Positions 2,338-59,892 of a DNA stretch of 64,000 nucleotides are shown piece by piece. Location of the stretch: assembly GCA_964474435.1 (NCBI GenBank), contig CAYYSI010000002.1, positions 163,604 through 227,603 of the forward strand, written 5' to 3'. The notes under the pieces were generated by a model. The model saw nothing but the letters and a program-made list of their open reading frames with translations, did no database searches and had not been told where the DNA came from. Origin of the DNA: an uncultured Candidatus Saccharibacteria bacterium. GTDB taxonomy: Bacteria; Patescibacteriota; Minisyncoccia; Phycocordibacterales; UBA9973. Position 1 is the first letter of the stretch; every line of letters begins with the position of its first letter. Position numbers and translations under genes: made by a program.

Positions 2338-3480
2338 ATGAGAAAAGTTGCATGGGCAGGATTGGTAGTAGTGTTGGTGATAGGGGCGGTGGCATTTCGT
2401 GCGCACCTCGTCGAATTTTATAACACGGTTGCACAACGTGACTTGCTCAAGGTTGAAATAGCGGATTTGCATTTGGAGCTTGCAGCACTCTCGATCGGTG
2501 CGCGTCCTGATCCGAGCGGACCAGAGAGTATCGTCGTACTCGGTGGTAGAACCCAAATGACGAGCAAGAACGATGTGTTCGCAAGTAACAACCTACTCTC
2601 ATGGAATCTCATTTCTCCAAACGCGGCTGCAACGACGAAATGGTCTGCACGAATGAATCCCAACACGGTGTATTTCCGCAATCAATACTGGGTTGTCGGC
2701 ACGAGTCACTGGAATAGTCCATCGAATAACATAACGAGTCCCAACGATGTGTGGTATTCACCTGATGGTATCAACTGGAAACTGACGACCGCACGTCCTC
2801 CGTTTGATAACTACTACGCACCATTTACGTCAGACTTTGCCGGATACTATGAATACCGCGCAACGACATTGGGAAATAAAATGTACGTTGTCGGCGGCAA
2901 GCCGGGCAACGGCAACAAGGCAGTGGTGTGGTCATCCCTTGATGGCACCAACTGGAATGTCGAAACAGCAGCAGCTCCATTTGAAAGTCGCACACTCTTT
3001 TCATTGGTCACCCACAGCGGCAAGATGTATGTCATCGGTGGTCGCTACGGCATGAACTCATATGGCAACAGTGGGGTATGGTCATCATCGGACGGTGCAA
3101 CCTGGACACAAGTCACGGCGACTCCTGCGTTTGGTACGTCACTTGCCAATGCAAAGGCGATCAGCTACAACGATCGACTATATCTCCTCGGAGGGGTTAC
3201 ACAAACTGCAACAAGTGGGGCGCAGTCACCCAAGGTATGGGCATCATATGATGGTGCGACATGGACACTCGTGAGTTCAACACTTCCTGATCCAAGTCAT
3301 ACGGGCTTTGATGTACGAGATGCAGTTGTCTCTGATGGCAAGATCTGGCTTGGCGATGCAGCCTATGATGGCGCAAGCAACAGACTGTGGTCAACAACTG
3401 ACGGTATCACCTGGACCCAAAATACCAAGACACCTGAGTGGTCTCCACGGTTCTCATACAGATTCTTGGGCAAAAGATAA
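2338..3480 (+). CDS. Membrane-anchored beta-propeller protein carrying Asp-box (BNR, S-x-D-x-G-x-T-W) repeats and Kelch-like GG motifs.
   Basis: 380 aa. N-terminal TM helix. Repeated motifs YSPDGINWKL, WSSLDGTNWNV, WSSSDGATWTQV, WASYDGATWTLV and WSTTDGITWTQ match the Asp-box consensus. Interleaved MYVVGG / MYVIGG / LYLLGG are Kelch-like. Confidence 0.6.
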   Translation: MRKVAWAGLVVVLVIGAVAFRAHLVEFYNTVAQRDLLKVEIADLHLELAALSIGARPDPSGPESIVVLGGRTQMTSKNDVFASNNLLSWNLISPNAAATTKWSARMNPNTVYFRNQYWVVGTSHWNSPSNNITSPNDVWYSPDGINWKLTTARPPFDNYYAPFTSDFAGYYEYRATTLGNKMYVVGGKPGNGNKAVVWSSLDGTNWNVETAAAPFESRTLFSLVTHSGKMYVIGGRYGMNSYGNSGVWSSSDGATWTQVTATPAFGTSLANAKAISYNDRLYLLGGVTQTATSGAQSPKVWASYDGATWTLVSSTLPDPSHTGFDVRDAVVSDGKIWLGDAAYDGASNRLWSTTDGITWTQNTKTPEWSPRFSYRFLGKR

Positions 3481-3487
3481 AAGGGGA

Positions 3488-3811
3488 ATGTCTACCAAAC
3501 CAGAAACCATCGATTTCATTCTCGCCAAGCTCGGCGACTACGAGCGGTTCACGACGCGCAAGATGTTTGGGGAATATGCGCTCTATGCAGATGGGAAAGT
3601 TGTCGCGCTCGTCTGTGATGATCAGTTCTATATAAAGATCATGCCCGAGAGCGCAGCACTTGCTGATATCTGCGAACAAGACTCGCCGTATCCTGGTGCA
3701 AAACCACACTACCTCGTCGAAGAACATCAGCTCTCGACGATCAAAGAATTACCAGACATATTAATTGCGATCGGGAAGGCGTTACCGAAGAAGCGAATTG
3801 TTAAAAAATAG
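3488..3811 (+). CDS. TfoX/Sxy N-terminal domain protein (competence-regulator-like).
   Basis: The start was re-chosen at ATG 3488 within ORF 3308-3811, preceded by AAGGGGAA. TRKMFGEYALYADGKVVALVCDDQFYIKI matches the TfoX_N pattern RKMFGGYGLY.DGK.FALI.D..LYLK. Confidence 0.55.
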   Translation: MSTKPETIDFILAKLGDYERFTTRKMFGEYALYADGKVVALVCDDQFYIKIMPESAALADICEQDSPYPGAKPHYLVEEHQLSTIKELPDILIAIGKALPKKRIVKK

Positions 3812-3832: not shown

Positions 3833-4459
3833 ATGTTTGCAATTATTGGAATGAGTCCAGGAAATGGCTACTTCAAACAAGAAGTAGTAAATCAACTCTT
3901 AGATAAAGCAATAAAAGAGTATTCAGAAATTGGTATTTTTATACCTGACGTTCCAGCAATATCTACATATGTTGCCCTAGGGTATGATCAGACACGAGCA
4001 AGAAGAGATAAGGCGATTCCTCAAGGTAATGCACTAAAAAATAAAGTAGTTCGCGCACTCAAGGAAAAAGAAATTGATCAATCAAAGGTGAGAATATTTG
4101 ATTGGTCTGGAGAAAACATACAAGAAAATCAATCGTATAGAGATAGTTTTTTGTATATTACAAATCTCTACCATTCAAATGGAGATTTCAAAAAAGAAGT
4201 GGATGATACAACATCAGCAGTACTTGTCGATAATGCATTTCGTAAAATACCAATAACACAAAAAGAAATTGAAATTGGTGCACACTATCTTCTTTCAGAG
4301 CTCACGTTTATGATATTTGTTGGAGAATATATAAATAAACAAGATGTTGGATACATATACCACAATCCGTGGCCGATTTTTCAAAATTTTATTGCAGGGA
4401 AATTTGATGGAATAAAGAAAGATCATATCCATTTTATTCTTTTTCCAAAGTTTTCATAA
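3833..4459 (+). CDS. Cyclodipeptide synthase (tRNA-dependent CDPS, AlbC-like).
   Basis: 208 aa. N-terminal AIIGMSPGNGYFKQ aligns with the AlbC catalytic-Ser region ALIGISAGNSYFSQ. HYLLSEL aligns with the AlbC Y178/E182 motif NYVLAEA. YIYHNPWP aligns with the Y202 region LCYHIDTP. Length and spacing fit CDPS. Confidence 0.65.
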   Translation: MFAIIGMSPGNGYFKQEVVNQLLDKAIKEYSEIGIFIPDVPAISTYVALGYDQTRARRDKAIPQGNALKNKVVRALKEKEIDQSKVRIFDWSGENIQENQSYRDSFLYITNLYHSNGDFKKEVDDTTSAVLVDNAFRKIPITQKEIEIGAHYLLSELTFMIFVGEYINKQDVGYIYHNPWPIFQNFIAGKFDGIKKDHIHFILFPKFS

Positions 4460-4499
4460 TAAAAACACCCCGACTTGCGGGGCATTTTTATGTTAGAAC

Positions 4500-5031: not shown

Positions 5032-6378
5032 CTAGTTGTTTTGATTATCCATCTGGGCATCGGCGCCTTCGATTTCATTGGTAATAATTTCACCCGTTGA
5101 GATACCTTCGAGGTCTGACTGGTTGTCAGTTTCGACTGGTACATCAGAAGCAATTTCTTCGAGTGCTTCTTCGTCAGTGATCGGCTCATCAGTTGTTTCT
5201 GCAGTTTCGCCTGCGAAGTTTTTCAATGAGACAAAGTCATCGCCTTCGAGTTTTTCATCAGTTGTTTCTACTTCTGCTTCAGTGCCTTTGATGTCGATCT
5301 TCCAGCCAGTGAGGCGTGCTGCGAGGCGTACATTTTGTCCACCTTTACCGATCGCGAGAGAGAGCTGATCAGGAGTGACTTCGATTGTTGCCTTGTGCTC
5401 TGCGTCATCGAGGTTGAGGTCGAGGACCTTGGCAGGAGAGAGGGATTTCTGGACGAATTCACTTGGGTCTGGTGACCATTCGATGATGTCGATCTTTTCG
5501 CCGCCGAGTTCATTCATAACTGTTGAGACACGCACACCTTTTTGTCCGACACATGATCCGACTGGGTCAATGTTTGCGTCGTCAGTCCAGACAGCGATCT
5601 TTGAACGGCTTCCTGGTTCTCGAGCGATAGCTTTGATTTCGACAATGCCACTTGCAACCTCTGGAGACTCATACCCAAAGAGCTTCTCAAGGAACTTGGG
5701 ATGAGTCCGAGAGATGCGAAGGGTGATACCGCGAGGGGATTCCTCTACGTGATAGAGATATCCACGAATACGTGCACCACGCACGTAGCGCTCACCTGGG
5801 ATTTGTTCGTTGGGAGGGATCACACCAGTTGCACGGTTGAAGTCGACGTACACCATGCCGCGCTCCACCTTTTGGATGTGTCCAGAAATGATATCGCCTT
5901 CCTTGGTACCAAACTCATCGAGGATCGATGTGCGTTCTGCCTCGCGAATGCGTTGCATGATGACCTGCTTTGCAGTTTGTGCAGCAATACGACCAAAGTC
6001 GTCGCGTGGTTCGAGGGAGAATACGATCTCATCACCGATTGCAGCATCAGTTTTCATGATACGTGCGTCATCAAGGAGGATGTGCTTCTCTTCATTATAG
6101 ACTTCTCGTTCATCGTCCTCTGCAACTGCTTCTTCGATACCGTCTTCTGCGACAAATCGAACGAGTGTGTCGTCAACAACAGTCTTTACCTGTTCAAAGT
6201 CGACAGTACCAGCATCGAGACTGATGCGTGCGCGGACTACCTGGCCTTTTTTACCGTATTCTTTCTTGTATGCAGCAGCGAGTGACTGTTCAATCGCATC
6301 AATAAGTTTGTCGCGGCCGATGCGTCGTTCACTTTCGAGTTGTTCAAGTGCGAGTTTGAGTGCTTTTATATCCAACAT
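5032..6378 (-). CDS. nusA: Transcription termination/antitermination factor NusA.
   Basis: 448 aa. N-terminal domain, S1 and two KH motifs (GSRSKIAVW, IGKGGQNVRLAARLTGWKIDI), and an acidic C-terminal tail. Confidence 0.9.
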   Translation of the reverse strand: MLDIKALKLALEQLESERRIGRDKLIDAIEQSLAAAYKKEYGKKGQVVRARISLDAGTVDFEQVKTVVDDTLVRFVAEDGIEEAVAEDDEREVYNEEKHILLDDARIMKTDAAIGDEIVFSLEPRDDFGRIAAQTAKQVIMQRIREAERTSILDEFGTKEGDIISGHIQKVERGMVYVDFNRATGVIPPNEQIPGERYVRGARIRGYLYHVEESPRGITLRISRTHPKFLEKLFGYESPEVASGIVEIKAIAREPGSRSKIAVWTDDANIDPVGSCVGQKGVRVSTVMNELGGEKIDIIEWSPDPSEFVQKSLSPAKVLDLNLDDAEHKATIEVTPDQLSLAIGKGGQNVRLAARLTGWKIDIKGTEAEVETTDEKLEGDDFVSLKNFAGETAETTDEPITDEEALEEIASDVPVETDNQSDLEGISTGEIITNEIEGADAQMDNQNN

Positions 6379-11229: not shown

Positions 11230-12357
11230 ATGCAATCAGTCTCCAAACTCCCATCACTCAAAGGTTCCTCTGTCATCGTTCGCGTTGACTTCAATGTCCC
11301 TCTCAAGGGAACAAAGATTGTTGATACTCGCCGCATCGATGCAAGCTATCAGACCATTGAAACTATTTTGAAAAAAGGCGGCACACCGATACTGCTCGCA
11401 CACCTCGGCAAGGGTGAAGAAAGTCTACGACCAATCGCAACATATCTCTCGAAATCATTTCCGGTTGTCTTTATAACCGCAGACATCACTGATAAAGGAA
11501 CGCATGACATCATTGCGCAAGTCCCAAAGGGGACAGTCATCCTCCTTGAAAATATCCGCCGCTATGAAGGTGAAGAAAAGAATGCCGTTGCCTTTGGAAA
11601 GACACTGGCTTCATATGGTCAGTATTTTGTAAACGACGCATTCTCCGTGTCGCACCGTGCACATGCGTCAGTGGTGGGTGTCGCGAAGTATCTGCCGTCG
11701 TACGCAGGCTACCAGCTAGAGCGAGAGGTCAAAGCACTCACGAGTGCAGTTGAGAACAAAAAGCATCCATTTCTTTTTATCCTTGGCGGTGCAAAATTTG
11801 AAACCAAGATTCCACTCTTGAAACAGTTTAATGAAAAGGCTGACAAGATCGTCATTGCAGGAGCTATTTTAAACAATTTTTATAAAGTCGCAGGGTTTGA
11901 AATAGGTAAGTCAGTCGTCGAAGACGGCTTTGATGCACCGATCAAAAAACTCCTTGCGAGTGAAAAGCTCCTTCTTCCGATCGATGTCATCGTGACACGG
12001 GGCACAAAGAAACTCACGGTGACTCCAGTTGAGATAGAAAAGACGGACGTCATTGTTGACATTGGACCCGAGAGTGTGGCACTTATCGTAAAGGAAATCC
12101 AGAAGGCAAAGCTCGTCGTCTGGAACGGCCCAACTGGCTGGTATGAAAAAGGCTTTACGAAAGGCACAACCGGTCTTGCCGAGGCAATTACCGAGAGCAG
12201 AACAGCCGCAATCATTGGCGGGGGAGACACAGGTGCAGTGATCGAGAAACTTGTCGGCAATGATCAAAGCAAGCGGATCTTTGTCTCAACGGGCGGAGGA
12301 GCAACACTTGATTTCCTTGCAAAGGGGACATTGCCGGGGATCAAGGCGCTCAAGTGA
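11230..12357 (+). CDS. pgk: Phosphoglycerate kinase.
   Basis: The start was re-chosen at MQSVSKLPSLKGSSVIVRVDFNVPL, 2 nt after the tpiA stop, within ORF 11143-12357. Motifs LLENIRRYEGEEKN, GGGDTGA and the overall layout match PGK. Confidence 0.9.
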   Translation: MQSVSKLPSLKGSSVIVRVDFNVPLKGTKIVDTRRIDASYQTIETILKKGGTPILLAHLGKGEESLRPIATYLSKSFPVVFITADITDKGTHDIIAQVPKGTVILLENIRRYEGEEKNAVAFGKTLASYGQYFVNDAFSVSHRAHASVVGVAKYLPSYAGYQLEREVKALTSAVENKKHPFLFILGGAKFETKIPLLKQFNEKADKIVIAGAILNNFYKVAGFEIGKSVVEDGFDAPIKKLLASEKLLLPIDVIVTRGTKKLTVTPVEIEKTDVIVDIGPESVALIVKEIQKAKLVVWNGPTGWYEKGFTKGTTGLAEAITESRTAAIIGGGDTGAVIEKLVGNDQSKRIFVSTGGGATLDFLAKGTLPGIKALK

Positions 12358-12385
12358 TTGACAAGGTCGGAAGGCATGCTATATT
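12357..12385 (+). promoter_or_regulatory. Sigma70-like promoter (TTGACA-16-TATATT) immediately after the pgk stop, driving small-RNA-like unit A.
   Basis: ttgacaaggtcggaaggcatgctatatt, read directly from the sequence. Confidence 0.4.
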
Positions 12386-12391
12386 CAAACT

Positions 12392-12461
12392 AGTTTTCAT
12401 AGGGTACGGATTAAAAACAATGGGCTGGATTTCTATCCTGGCCCATTTTCTTTTGCCTTGC
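12392..12461 (+). ncRNA. Candidate small RNA, unit A (~65 nt), ending in an intrinsic terminator hairpin with loop AUUUCUAU.
   Basis: Sequence AACUAGUUUUCAUAGGGUACGGAUUAAAAACAAUGGGCUGGAUUUCUAUCCUGGCCCAUUUUCUUUU. The stem GGGCUGG / CCUGGCCC is followed by a U-tract. A homologous copy lies at 12646-12706. Confidence 0.35.
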
Positions 12462-12610
12462 TATTTTGTATGAGAGGTATAGACTTAAAGAAATCTAACC
12501 CTGTAAAAATGTCTTGAATGATACAGAGGAGAAAAACCACATATATCACCCAATCCAATCTCCTATAAATCTTCCAAAAAGCCCGGCATATCCCCGGGCT
12601 TTTCTAGTAC

Positions 12611-12639
12611 TTGCGCATTTTTGAGAGCTGTGCTATAGT
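12611..12639 (+). promoter_or_regulatory. Sigma70-like promoter (TTGCGC-17-TATAGT) driving small-RNA-like unit B.
   Basis: ttgcgcatttttgagagctgtgctatagt. A separate GC hairpin plus T-tract (gcccggcatatccccgggcttttct) lies just upstream at ~12580-12606. Confidence 0.35.
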
Positions 12640-12645
12640 AAAGGC

Positions 12646-12706
12646 TGGTTTTTCATAGGATATTGGATTTTAATACGGGACTTGATTTCTATCAGGTCCC
12701 CTTTTT
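12646..12706 (+). ncRNA. Candidate small RNA, unit B (paralog of unit A), ending in a terminator hairpin with the identical loop AUUUCUAU.
   Basis: Sequence GGCUGGUUUUUCAUAGGAUAUUGGAUUUUAAUACGGGACUUGAUUUCUAUCAGGUCCCCUUUUUC. The 5' part is shared with unit A (GGUUUUCAUAGG..GGAUU..AA.AC). The stem is GGGACUUG / CAGGUCCC, with compensatory changes relative to A. Confidence 0.35.
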
Positions 12707-12790
12707 CAAAAACTATGAAAACATATAATTAAATATTGAAAATCAAAATATTGGTATCTTAAGGGGGTTACAGAATCGGGAGATTCTTAA

Positions 12791-12826
12791 TAGGCCGGTG
12801 ATGTTTATCACTGGCCATTTTTATTT
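12791..12826 (+). terminator. Intrinsic terminator hairpin (ggccggtgat-gttt-atcactggcc) followed by ATTTTTATTT.
   Basis: 10-bp stem with one G-U wobble, followed by a T-tract. It abuts the HIT gene stop at 12821, which sits on the opposite strand. Confidence 0.4.
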
Positions 12827-13222
12827 CCCCAATCCACTCCGTATCTTTTCTGCAAACGCTGCCATTTCCCCATCTTTGTATTGAAATATAGGCCAGCCGT
12901 GCAGGTGATCATTGAGTGTTCGTGGCATGAGGTGAATATGAAAATGAGGCACGTCTTTGCCGAGTACTGATATTTGCACATAATCACACCCTAATCCTTT
13001 GATCATTCCCATCATCAACATCTTTGTTTTTGTAAACAAGTAACTCAGAAGCTCATCGGGGACATCTTGCATCCATATATAGTGTTCTTTTGGAATGACA
13101 AGTACATGTCCGTTTGATACAGGATTGATATCCATAAATGCCAAACATCGATCATCCTCATAAACCTTGGTCGCAGGGATTTCTCCTCTAATAATTTTCC
13201 CAAATACCGTGTCATTTTGCAT
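12821..13222 (-). CDS. HIT (histidine triad) family nucleotide hydrolase.
   Basis: 133 aa. The HIT motif HFHIHLMP and N-terminal FGKIIRGEIPA are typical HinT-like features. Confidence 0.8.
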   Translation of the reverse strand: MQNDTVFGKIIRGEIPATKVYEDDRCLAFMDINPVSNGHVLVIPKEHYIWMQDVPDELLSYLFTKTKMLMMGMIKGLGCDYVQISVLGKDVPHFHIHLMPRTLNDHLHGWPIFQYKDGEMAAFAEKIRSGLGK

Positions 13223-24376: not shown

Positions 24377-25000
24377 ATGCAAGGACCGATTTCTATTTTT
24401 TATTTCCTCATATTAATGATTTCTATCATTGTGCACGAGGTTGCACACGGGCTCATGGCAGAGAGAGAAGGCGACCCAACGGCCCGCATGCTCGGACGCA
24501 TCACACTTAACCCACTCAAGCACATCGACTGGCTCGGGTCAGTCATTTTGCCACTGACACTCATACTCTCTAATGCTGGATTTGTCGTCGGCTGGGCAAA
24601 GCCAGTGCCGTACAATCCCGAAAATCTGAAAAATGGCAACAAATCGGTCGCCAAGGTCTCGATCGCAGGGATCGTCGTGAACCTCTGCATTGCCGTCGTG
24701 TTTGGGATAATGATCCGCATTTCCATCCTCACGGGCCTTATTTCTACGGCATTTATTGATATCGCAAGTATTATTGTGCTCGTAAATATTGTACTCGCAC
24801 TCTTCAATGCCATTCCACTCGCACCACTTGACGGCTTCCGCTTCCTCAATGCAGTGCTCCCAGCGAGATTTACTCCAGCAATGCGAGCAATCGAGCAATA
24901 TAGCCTGCCACTCCTCCTTGTCTTCATCGTCTTTGGCTGGAAATTCGTCGCTCCATTTGCCTTTACGCTCTTTAGTTTGATTACGGGGATTTCTATATAA
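24377..25000 (+). CDS. Site-2 protease family (M50-like) intramembrane zinc metalloprotease.
   Basis: 207 aa and polytopic. HEVAHGLMA (HExxH) and NPLKHIDWLGS with LAPLDG are typical of small M50B/SpoIVFB-like proteases. Confidence 0.6.
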   Translation: MQGPISIFYFLILMISIIVHEVAHGLMAEREGDPTARMLGRITLNPLKHIDWLGSVILPLTLILSNAGFVVGWAKPVPYNPENLKNGNKSVAKVSIAGIVVNLCIAVVFGIMIRISILTGLISTAFIDIASIIVLVNIVLALFNAIPLAPLDGFRFLNAVLPARFTPAMRAIEQYSLPLLLVFIVFGWKFVAPFAFTLFSLITGISI

Positions 25001-58683: not shown

Positions 58684-59103
58684 TTACGCAGTCAGGTATC
58701 GTGGGTTCACGATATAGTACCCTTCGGGAAGCGGTTGCGAAATGTCTGGGTGGTTGTCCGGTATGTTTTGTAAGTCCGGGTTTTCTTTTTTAAGACTTTC
58801 TAAATGCACGATCGATCGTACGACTGCTCCCATTTGCGATGCTGTGGTTACAGTCGCATAGATGATACCTTTTTCTTTCATGAGATTGGAAATCTCTTTT
58901 TCCATCTCATAGGCATAGTTTTTGCGTGAATGAGGGAGGTCATTGTCGAGATCTACAGGTTTTTTTTCTTTGAGAAATGAAAAAGGGCTTGCGGAGGCCG
59001 TGAGAGATAAAGTCTGTGCAATAGTTGCGGAAATGCTCTTACGCATAAATAAACAGTTTTTGGATTGTGAAGAAAGTGGGTTATTTCCATTATTATTACA
59101 CAC
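58684..59103 (-). CDS. Hypothetical protein.
   Basis: 139-aa ORF. The true start may be the internal MRKSISATIAQTLSLTASA, which is signal-like. No family recognised. Confidence 0.3.
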   Translation of the reverse strand: MCNNNGNNPLSSQSKNCLFMRKSISATIAQTLSLTASASPFSFLKEKKPVDLDNDLPHSRKNYAYEMEKEISNLMKEKGIIYATVTTASQMGAVVRSIVHLESLKKENPDLQNIPDNHPDISQPLPEGYYIVNPRYLTA

Positions 59104-59134
59104 TTCATAAATAAAGCAAGTATTTCACACAAGC

Positions 59135-59165
59135 AAAAAGCCGCCCTGGAGGGGCGGCTTTTTGT
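59135..59165. terminator. Strong bidirectional intrinsic terminator downstream of csp.
   Basis: aaaaagccgcccc-tgga-ggggcggcttttt. Confidence 0.65.
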
Positions 59166-59178
59166 GGATAGAGTGTGA

Positions 59179-59376
59179 TTACGCGCGCTGCACGTTTACC
59201 GCACTCATTCCTTTTTGAGAATCTTCTGTTTCGAAAGAAACAGCATCGCCTTCGCGAAGTTCGTCAAAGGTTACACCAACGAGAGAGTTAGCATGAAAGA
59301 AAAGATCTTTTGCTAGGCTTTCTGAAGCGATGAAACCAAATCCTTTGTCAGTCAGTTTTTTGATTGAACCAGTCAT
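59179..59376 (-). CDS. csp: Cold-shock protein (CspA family).
   Basis: 65 aa. KGFGFI (RNP1) and DLFFH (RNP2-like). A promoter-like TTGACT-17-TACTAT lies at ~59461-59492 on the minus strand, which would give a ~90-nt 5'UTR. Confidence 0.85.
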   Translation of the reverse strand: MTGSIKKLTDKGFGFIASESLAKDLFFHANSLVGVTFDELREGDAVSFETEDSQKGMSAVNVQRA

Positions 59377-59505
59377 TGAATTGAATTGTTTACGAATAAT
59401 TACAAAATGAACTGTCTCTAGAAAACGACTCCTTCCTCAACCTCGCTCTTTTGTACTTTTATAGTATCACCCTTTGATTAAAAAGTCAAGGTGATATTTT
59501 AATTG

Positions 59506-59892
59506 TGGAACTGGGGGGAATCGAACCCCCGTGCAAAAATGCAGAATATACAGGTCTACATGTGTAGCAAGGTTTGATGTTTAGAACGTGATCTTGAAAC
59601 AATGCAAAACAATCACATTCGAGTCTCGTCATTTTGGCGCACTACTGAGACGAGTAGTACTGCCTATCCCGATGAATGTTGCCGCGACCTATCTATCGGA
59701 AGTCGATAGAAGCGACACCAGCTTGGCCTAAGTTAGGCGAAGATTGGAATGGCTCCGGCCATACTAAAGTATGGTGAAGCCACCTTAGCGGAGTTCTTTG
59801 CAGATATCCTGTTGGACGACGTTTTGCGAGGGTACGTCCATGCTCGACATGCGTATATATTCGAAACAGTTTTGTCGAAACCAAACAGCCCC
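59506..59892 (-). ncRNA. ssrA: tmRNA (ssrA).
   Basis: The minus strand reads 5'-GGGGCUGUUUGGUUUCGAC..., against E. coli GGGGCUGAUUCUGGAUUCGAC. It ends ...GGGGGUUCGAUUCCCCCCAGUUCCA, a T-arm plus acceptor 3' strand that pairs with the 5' GGGGCUG. The in-frame tag ORF ends ...AGAIPIFA-UAA, and the stop sits inside hairpin GCCUAACUUAGGC. Genomic CAA replaces CCA at the 3' end. The gene lies immediately downstream of smpB. Confidence 0.7.

Follow-up and report, generated by a model that had tools for sequence, protein, structure and literature searches.

We analysed a 64,000-nucleotide (nt) window of DNA (contig CAYYSI010000002.1, positions 163,604 to 227,603) from an uncultured Candidatus Saccharibacteria bacterium of the candidate phyla radiation (CPR). 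Downstream of its pgk gene (phosphoglycerate kinase) lie two related units, A and B, which on moderately strong grounds we take to be two independently transcribed paralogous genes for trans-acting small RNAs (sRNAs) of about 60 nt, related to the FopS and GibS sRNAs of Bacteroides. The flanking open reading frames (ORFs) are pgk, upstream on the same strand, and a convergent gene of the HIT family. The two units and their predicted promoters are as follows.

12358-12385, + strand: promoter A, with -35 TTGACA at 12358-12363, a 16-nt spacer and a TG-extended -10 TATATT at 12380-12385
12392-12454, + strand: unit A, putative type-A sRNA of about 62 nt with the 5' seed AGUUUUCAUAGGGUACGGAUUAAAAAC; its 5' end is placed from the promoter
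12419-12447, + strand: terminator hairpin of unit A, apex GGAU-UUCU-AUCC, with a U-tract at 12446-12454
12611-12639, + strand: promoter B, with TTGCGC at 12611-12616, a 17-nt spacer and an extended -10 TGCTATAGT at 12631-12639
12647-12706, + strand: unit B, putative type-B sRNA of about 60 nt with the 5' seed GGUUUUUCAUAGGAUAUUGGAUUUUAAUAC
12677-12700, + strand: terminator hairpin of unit B, 10 base pairs, apex UGAU-UUCU-AUCA, with a U-tract at 12702-12706, found by a terminator scan

Two paralogous units with a shared 5' block and a covarying hairpin

Units A and B have the same layout: the 5' block leads into an A-rich linker, and a terminator hairpin whose apex is conserved closes the unit. 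A preliminary description of this DNA, made from the letters alone, had proposed two small-RNA-like units with a shared 5' block, and a composite pattern of the common blocks (TTTTCATAGG-N(3-8)-GGATT-N(8-30)-GATTTCTATC) found them where it had placed them. This pattern had two exact matches in 64 kb, at 12394-12437 and 12650-12693 on the + strand, and none in 100 shuffles. Both terminator-type hairpins folded as predicted (-20.6 kcal/mol for A and -16.8 kcal/mol for B), and the stems of A and B differed in the base-pair-preserving manner that had been claimed. These stems were three pairs longer than first drawn, extending as GAU/AUC, and the loop is therefore a UUCU tetraloop. The 'identical 8-nt loop' of the preliminary description was thus correct in that the apex is identical in A and B, but the eight nucleotides are not all loop, the GAU/AUC pairs leaving only the tetraloop.

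The promoters described earlier were also found. TTGACA-16-TATATT was recovered ahead of unit A by a consensus scan, with 11 of 12 matches and the TG, and it overlaps the pgk stop codon (12355-12357). TTGCGC-17-TATAGT is present ahead of unit B; it fell below the -35 threshold of the scan, and its extended -10 TGCTATAGT is kept in relatives (L003, L009, L145 and L170; L-numbers label the loci compared) at an equal distance from the RNA start. Each RNA is predicted to start at (G)GUUUUUCAUAGG, which would put a conserved single-stranded seed of about 25 nt at the very 5' end.

To describe the family to which these units belong, we used a covariance model, R1, built from 55 family copies, both window units among them. 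This model scored unit B at 81.1 bits and unit A at 59.9 bits, and across the window nothing besides A and B scored above 20 bits. Two other matches were set aside: an antisense match at 12671-12723, which reflects the symmetry of the hairpin, and a weak match at 4449-4489 (+ strand, 10.6 bits; AGUUUUCAUAAUAAAAAC, a hairpin and a U-tract), which is most likely just the terminator of the ORF at 3833-4459, whose stop codon it overlaps. R1 recovers 104 copies, in which 94% of hairpin cells are paired, compared with 82% in shuffles, and 111 cells show double changes, compared with 36. Double changes occur in seven of the eight stem pairs, as expected from the proposal of compensatory changes under selection for structure. 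The hairpin apex, with the consensus R-U-UUCU-A-Y, also persists in homologues, U-UUCU-A being exact in 12 of 19 copies retrieved without a hairpin constraint. The most conserved and probably functional part, however, is the single-stranded 5' block and not the loop. Taken together, the fixed promoter distance, the covariation and the persistence of the apex uphold the idea of paralogous sRNA genes with their own promoters, selected for structure and hairpin apex, in preference to generic pgk terminators.

A large family in Chitinophagales

A 23-base pattern searched over species-representative genomes identified an RNA of about 58 nt at 120 loci or more (at least 120), nearly all of them, among the matches listed, in metagenome-assembled genomes of Chitinophagales (Bacteroidota). 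The family is common in soil and freshwater members of this order. Its copies there are of exactly the window's two types, AGUUUUCAUAGGGUACGGAUUAAAAAC.. (A) and GGUUUUUCAUAGGAUAUUGGAUUUUAAAAC.. (B). Type A has one locus context, between a polysaccharide deacetylase gene and TatD, and type B has at least seven syntenic contexts. At a fixed distance of 4-6 nt upstream of the RNA start stands a box resembling TAnnTTTG, the Bacteroidetes -7 promoter element (PMC7366714). The next downstream gene is mostly convergent, and the neighbours are unrelated housekeeping genes in conserved synteny, with copies at orthologous positions across genera. The convergent next gene, the -7 box and the unrelated syntenic neighbours therefore point to stand-alone genes rather than leaders. 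One copy on a Bacteroidota contig (L142, 8669-11980) has the variant apex GGAUGUCAAUCC and lies near conjugative-transposon genes, including those for a TraG-like coupling protein and a relaxase.

The window units are close to these copies. The unit A seed does not differ from Chitinophagales type A over 27 nt, the block of about 25 nt being non-palindromic and conserved across phyla, and unit B is up to 92% identical to Chitinophagales copies. In its hairpin (AUGGGCUGGAUUUCUAUCCUGGCCC), unit A is identical to the type-B copies L031 and L100 (L026 was also compared); with a type-A seed and a type-B hairpin, unit A (12392-12447) looks chimeric. Promoters stand at a fixed distance from the RNA in two architectures, sigma-70-type and Bacteroidetes -7 box, and in the CPR copies the start predicted from the sigma-70 promoter falls on the same nucleotide as that predicted from the Chitinophagales -7 box.

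Probable relation to FopS and GibS

The family's 5' end, (G)GUUUUUCAUAG..UAUU.GAUUU, matches the seed of FopS and GibS: GUUUUUCAUAG is followed by UAUU, R and GAUUU in both. The 5' ends of FopS-10 and GibS are GUGUUUUUCAUAGUAUUAG, and the FopS probe site is ..GUAUUAGAUUUAAGGUUAACAAA (oligonucleotide table, PMC11697453). Unit B reads GGUUUUUCAUAG-GA-UAUUGGAUUU, in which GA is a 2-nt insertion relative to the FopS seed; allowing for it, about 20 of 23 positions of the FopS seed R1/R1' (GUGUUUUUCAUAGUAUUAGAUUU) are identical in unit B. In a joint alignment of FopS with the present family, UUUUCAUAG is invariant.

FopS is a multicopy sRNA that has also been found in a phage, and it is the 5' seed that represses susC: seed positions 1-21 pair adjacent to the start codon of susC-like mRNAs, preventing translation; the protein RbpB antagonizes this and binds both FopS and GibS in the 5' portion (PMC11697453). 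The present family resembles it in several respects. Folds, the terminator scan, the covarying consensus structure and a length of 58-62 nt give it the FopS-type architecture (58-70 nt in the comparison of the two families), and the sigma-ABfr promoter (TAnnTTTG at -7) and multicopy occurrence are found in the Chitinophagales copies, where the transcript would start 4-5 nt after the -7 box, as in FopS. Both families have many paralogues per genome and phage copies, some directly after tRNAs. The differences are that the window promoters are sigma-70-type, with two copies plus a degenerate third in the window; that the present family has the 2-nt seed insertion, a shorter linker and two fixed seed types, A and B; that its hairpin apex is conserved, whereas FopS terminators vary; and that its hosts are Chitinophagales and Paceibacteria, not Bacteroidaceae. 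FopS has been reported in Bacteroidaceae and one phage only, with Chitinophagales not mentioned (PMC11697453).

Model searches in both directions are consistent with a distant relationship. Applied to nine distinct FopS-bearing loci, R1 locates the FopS copy in each, at the correct position and with 18-27 bits, and it scores a shortened FopS-like copy after a tRNA (L223) at 13.3 bits (E = 0.45). A search with the FopS seed returned records of Bacteroides, Parabacteroides, Phocaeicola and Prevotella, one Bacteroides phage and 95 viral contigs. Conversely, the Rfam model of FopS, RF04319 (BTncRNA_FopS), was the best of 4227 families on a 73-nt stretch with unit B, at 15.2 bits (E = 1.5); with the same tool, true FopS copies score 69-82 bits. 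Rfam 15 scans otherwise returned only the transfer-messenger RNA (tmRNA) and no riboswitch from the whole window, only noise at E <= 10 from a 601-nt region and only tRNAs from eighteen related loci. The earlier statement that no known RNA family is evident thus stands as far as Rfam families at threshold are concerned, but not for the 5' block, whose likeness to the FopS/GibS seed is sufficient to indicate a relationship, though not to make the two seeds identical. A literature search with the exact sequence found nothing relevant, and keyword searches did not name the family directly.

Distribution in Paceibacteria and phages

Named relatives of the window HIT protein are all Paceibacterota, Parcubacteria or Patescibacteria, which assigns the window to a CPR bacterium, and the CPR comparison set comprised contigs encoding HIT proteins 67-81% identical to it. 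The occurrence of the family in the genome of such an ultra-small bacterium was unexpected. Downstream of pgk, L003, L006, L009, L010, L146, L170 and L172 each have a type-B unit preceded by an extended -10 promoter of its own; unit A is found, within this set, in the window only. As L148, L149 and L150 have a pgk-HIT spacer of 0-58 nt that lacks the cluster, the cluster is specific to a narrow lineage. Paceibacteria copies are always downstream of pgk. In L010, the public record has a 57-amino-acid gene antisense across unit B (3402-3575, + strand), which is probably a spurious call. The metagenome contigs L134, L141 and L145 represent a second lineage, in which promoters are again sigma-70-type, very large surface proteins are encoded and three units stand in tandem: one is of type B, and two are divergent GGGUUU..AGGGUA..AAAG-hairpin units.

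The family also occurs on viral contigs. A 236-kb contig with baseplate genes and a ribonucleotide reductase gene carries a Chitinophagales-type RNA (L133). In others the RNA lies downstream of 12 tRNA genes (L168), starts 2 nt after a phage tmRNA gene (L155), lies between tRNAs (L159) or has a sigma-70-like promoter and adjoins a terminase gene (L166). BLAST of the family against cultured phages and plasmids gave no match. On several viral contigs (L155 at 12757-13222, L159 at 5145-5386, L223, L257 and L178), either this family or Bacteroides-type FopS stands directly 3' of tmRNA or tRNA genes with no promoter of its own, which suggests that these promoterless copies are released from the tRNA or tmRNA precursors.

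Identity of the CPR copies to the nearest Chitinophagales copy is 74-93% (85-93% in five of eight). The median identity among Chitinophagales copies is 78%, so the CPR copies are about as close to them as Chitinophagales paralogues are to each other. Most likely, judging from these sequences, the Paceibacteria clade acquired the family horizontally, possibly through phages, with sigma-70 promoters replacing the original ones; the transfer would have run from Chitinophagales or phage to CPR. One seed sequence links FopS of Bacteroides, described in 2025, an unrecorded large sister family in Chitinophagales, many phage contigs and a Paceibacteria clade. The family would be a concrete example of an sRNA gene that crossed a phylum boundary and was refitted with another promoter type.

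A predicted sRNA island with a complementary RNA

The 470-nt spacer holds four predicted small transcription units, A, X, B and C. The two further terminator hairpins noted in the preliminary description are real, at 12581-12599 and 12793-12816, and belong to X and C. The additional features are as follows.

12458-12485, + strand: putative promoter X, TTGCTA at 12458-12463, a 16-nt spacer and TAGACT at 12480-12485, placed by alignment
12491-12604, + strand: putative RNA X, about 114 nt, between A and B, with a terminator at 12581-12599 and a U-tract
12752-12826, + strand: unit C, with an extended -10 TGGTATCTT at 12752-12760 and a predicted RNA of about 60 nt from about 12766
12767-12791 and 12793-12816, + strand: hairpins of unit C, followed by a U-tract at 12818-12826

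Promoter X aligns with TTGCAA-16-TACTAT in L003 and L146 and with TTGCAT-16-TACAAT in L010, and RNA X has a fold z of -3.7. Two boxes in X, GAAAAACC (12531-12538) and AAUCCAAUCUCCUAUAAA (12552-12569), are complementary to the B seed; the duplexes predicted for them, -17.9 to -19.0 and -16.4 to -16.7 kcal/mol, are equalled by 2-4% of shuffles. The same two boxes are present in X of L003, L009, L010, L146, L170 and L172. X is conserved downstream of pgk across the clade, and L169 keeps it there, with a contiguous anti-seed, although B is missing from that locus. Complementarity of X to the type-A seed was not significant, and the flanks of Chitinophagales copies held no X-like complementary neighbour. 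Within the window, X was the sole complementary partner of the seed that we found, and these matches suggest that it may act on A and B as a sponge or else be targeted by them.

Unit C is probably a degenerate paralogue of A and B. Its fold (-24.4 kcal/mol, z = -6.5) ends in a terminator whose apex, GAU-GUUU-AUC, resembles that of the family and which overlaps the 3' end of the convergent HIT gene; R1 matches it partially (16.9 bits), and L003, L010 and L146 have counterparts. The locus would thus be an island of four sRNA genes, a complementary RNA among their products, in a kind of genome generally regarded as having minimal regulation.

Proposed mechanism and search for targets

By analogy with FopS, each RNA would consist of a 5' seed, an A-rich linker and a Rho-independent terminator with a conserved apex, and the seed would pair with RNAs around the start codon and block translation initiation. 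The complement of the seed contains CCUAUGAAAAA; read as ..AAUAUCCUAUGAAAAACC, it is an AUG with Lys codons after it. In this scheme X would either titrate A and B as a sponge or be a target of both.

Several candidate partners were rejected. Pairing of the seed with tmRNA, either the window's or a phage's, was no better than that of shuffled seeds. For type A, complementarity to the start of the polysaccharide-deacetylase gene in L092 was not conserved in the other 29 loci. A pseudoknot between AUAGG and the loop UCUAU was discarded because the loop variants GUCA, UUCC and UUUU are not compensated. Flanks of the Chitinophagales copies showed no target enrichment, and a search of five large ORFs for targets found nothing. 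Apart from the strand opposite the two units, the only place in the window with the loop complement GATAGAAATC is inside an ORF at 24418.

The following observations weigh against reading A and B as FopS-related, base-pairing sRNAs. Transcription of the two units and their start sites are predictions from promoter sequence. The strongest seed duplexes at start regions of the 64-kb window, -15.8 and -17.0 kcal/mol, are surpassed by the best that shuffled seeds form, and among 834 gene starts in the Chitinophagales loci none beats shuffled seeds. RF04319 was not listed for unit A at E <= 10 (threshold 56 bits), and its 15.2 bits for unit B fall far below the gathering threshold of 56 bits; the family is therefore a sister of FopS and not a member. 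Homology rests on about 20 nt and a shared architecture, and the two families may instead have converged on a common target. Over the at least 120 loci, the constancy of the 5' block was partly imposed by the search pattern. For X, Fisher's combined p over eight genomes is 2e-5, which overstates independence because these genomes are related, and singly the complementarity reaches p <= 0.05 in only four of the eight (the window, L003, L170 and L172; p = 0.07 in L010). Finally, the known FopS targets are SusC-like outer-membrane transporters, which are not expected in a CPR cell. As such a cell presumably lacks these targets, the RNAs would either have gained internal ones, X being their sponge or one of the targets, or exert their effect on a partner among the Bacteroidota.

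Alternative explanations

The lack of mRNA targets in the searches of the window and of the 834 gene starts would also fit RNAs that titrate a protein. Here the GGR-U repeats of the 5' block, together with the apex, would bind an RbpB-like protein with an RNA recognition motif (RRM), and the RNAs would sequester it or be handled by it instead of base pairing. The binding of RbpB to the 5' portion of FopS and GibS (PMC11697453) is a precedent, and the apex U-UUCU-A is conserved even though a terminator needs no fixed loop. In Bacteroides, however, RbpB antagonizes FopS, and base pairing is the demonstrated activity. X is complementary to the seed, and the window encodes no RRM protein, only a cold-shock protein with an RNP-like motif. 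We consider protein titration doubtful, although worth keeping in view. The small cold-shock-domain ORF (about 59100-59350, - strand), with KGFGFI, follows a tmRNA gene on the same strand (59503-59892, - strand, 128.7 bits).

We also consider it unlikely that the RNAs are host-directed effectors, by which the Paceibacteria clade and phages would use a Chitinophagales sRNA to reprogramme host translation, the CPR cell itself offering no target. Chitinophagales harbour the family natively and in abundance, the CPR copies fall within the range of identity among Chitinophagales copies, and phages carry the family, sometimes fused to tRNA or tmRNA genes. We found no target start codon in the window, and the canonical FopS targets are outer-membrane transporters. 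On the other side, CPR cells are not known to have a route for delivering RNA, and the conserved anti-seed X beside the genes argues for an internal circuit. We give equally little credence to the specific form in which these FopS-like sRNAs silence Chitinophagales host mRNAs, such as those for SusC-type transporters, and X serves as an internal antidote or sponge. If true, it would be a first case of inter-bacterial regulation by a stolen sRNA, and the sequence of a host-directed sRNA would betray the host of an uncultured CPR lineage. The family is a testable clue to the host or partner of the CPR clade.

It is very improbable that the units are ordinary tandem terminators of pgk or a dispersed repeat without RNA function, of the repetitive extragenic palindrome or miniature inverted-repeat transposable element kind. 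Their position downstream of pgk, the strong hairpins with U-tracts and the multicopy occurrence in Chitinophagales are what such elements would show, but each unit is preceded by a promoter that belongs to it and stands at a constant distance, whichever of the two promoter systems is used, and a 25-nt non-palindromic block is conserved across phyla. Copies occupy orthologous positions across genera rather than variable insertion sites, no terminal inverted repeats were seen, and L148, L149 and L150 terminate pgk without the units.

Least credible of all, and largely refuted by context, are cis-acting elements, attenuators or riboswitches, in which an aptamer embedded in the terminator would control tiny ORFs or other sequence downstream: a conserved 5' block before an apex-conserved terminator does look like an expression platform, and GGAUA/GGGUA of the block can pair with UAUCC/UACCC of the terminator's 3' half, but we rejected this identity because the downstream gene is convergent in most of the at least 120 loci (in the window only small RNAs and HIT follow, B being succeeded by unit C and then the convergent HIT gene), because the 5' block and the terminator do not covary consistently (type-B seeds with GGGU..ACCC apices; GGGUA with AUCC in window unit A), and because loop variants lack compensation in the 5' block and Rfam gave no riboswitch match. 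The HMP-PP (thiS) riboswitch is likewise a small element with conserved nucleotides in a terminator hairpin; the present family differs in having no regulated gene downstream, no alternative-pairing covariation and no Rfam match.

Comparison with other sRNA systems

Returning to A and B as trans-acting sRNAs, X invites comparison with the sponge or decoy RNAs 3'ETS-leuZ, which is cut from a tRNA precursor, SroC and the chb mRNA trap for ChiX. Like these, X is complementary to the seed of sRNAs, here adjacent ones, and some phage copies of the family, which the arrangement suggests are cut from tRNA or tmRNA precursors, recall 3'ETS-leuZ. X differs in that its putative role is read from complementarity only and in being encoded in tandem with the sRNAs that it would titrate.

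As a rule, a regulatory sRNA family does not extend beyond one genus or family. This is the range of the multicopy, Hfq-dependent seed-type sRNAs Qrr1-5 of Vibrio and OmrA/B and RybB of enterobacteria. The present family shares with them a seed at or near the 5' end, paralogues with variable 3' parts and a terminator as the 3' module. Bacteroides lacks Hfq (PMC7366714). The present family has no sequence relation to Qrr1-5, OmrA/B or RybB and spans two phyla, and it would widen the newly found FopS regulatory system to a second order of Bacteroidota.

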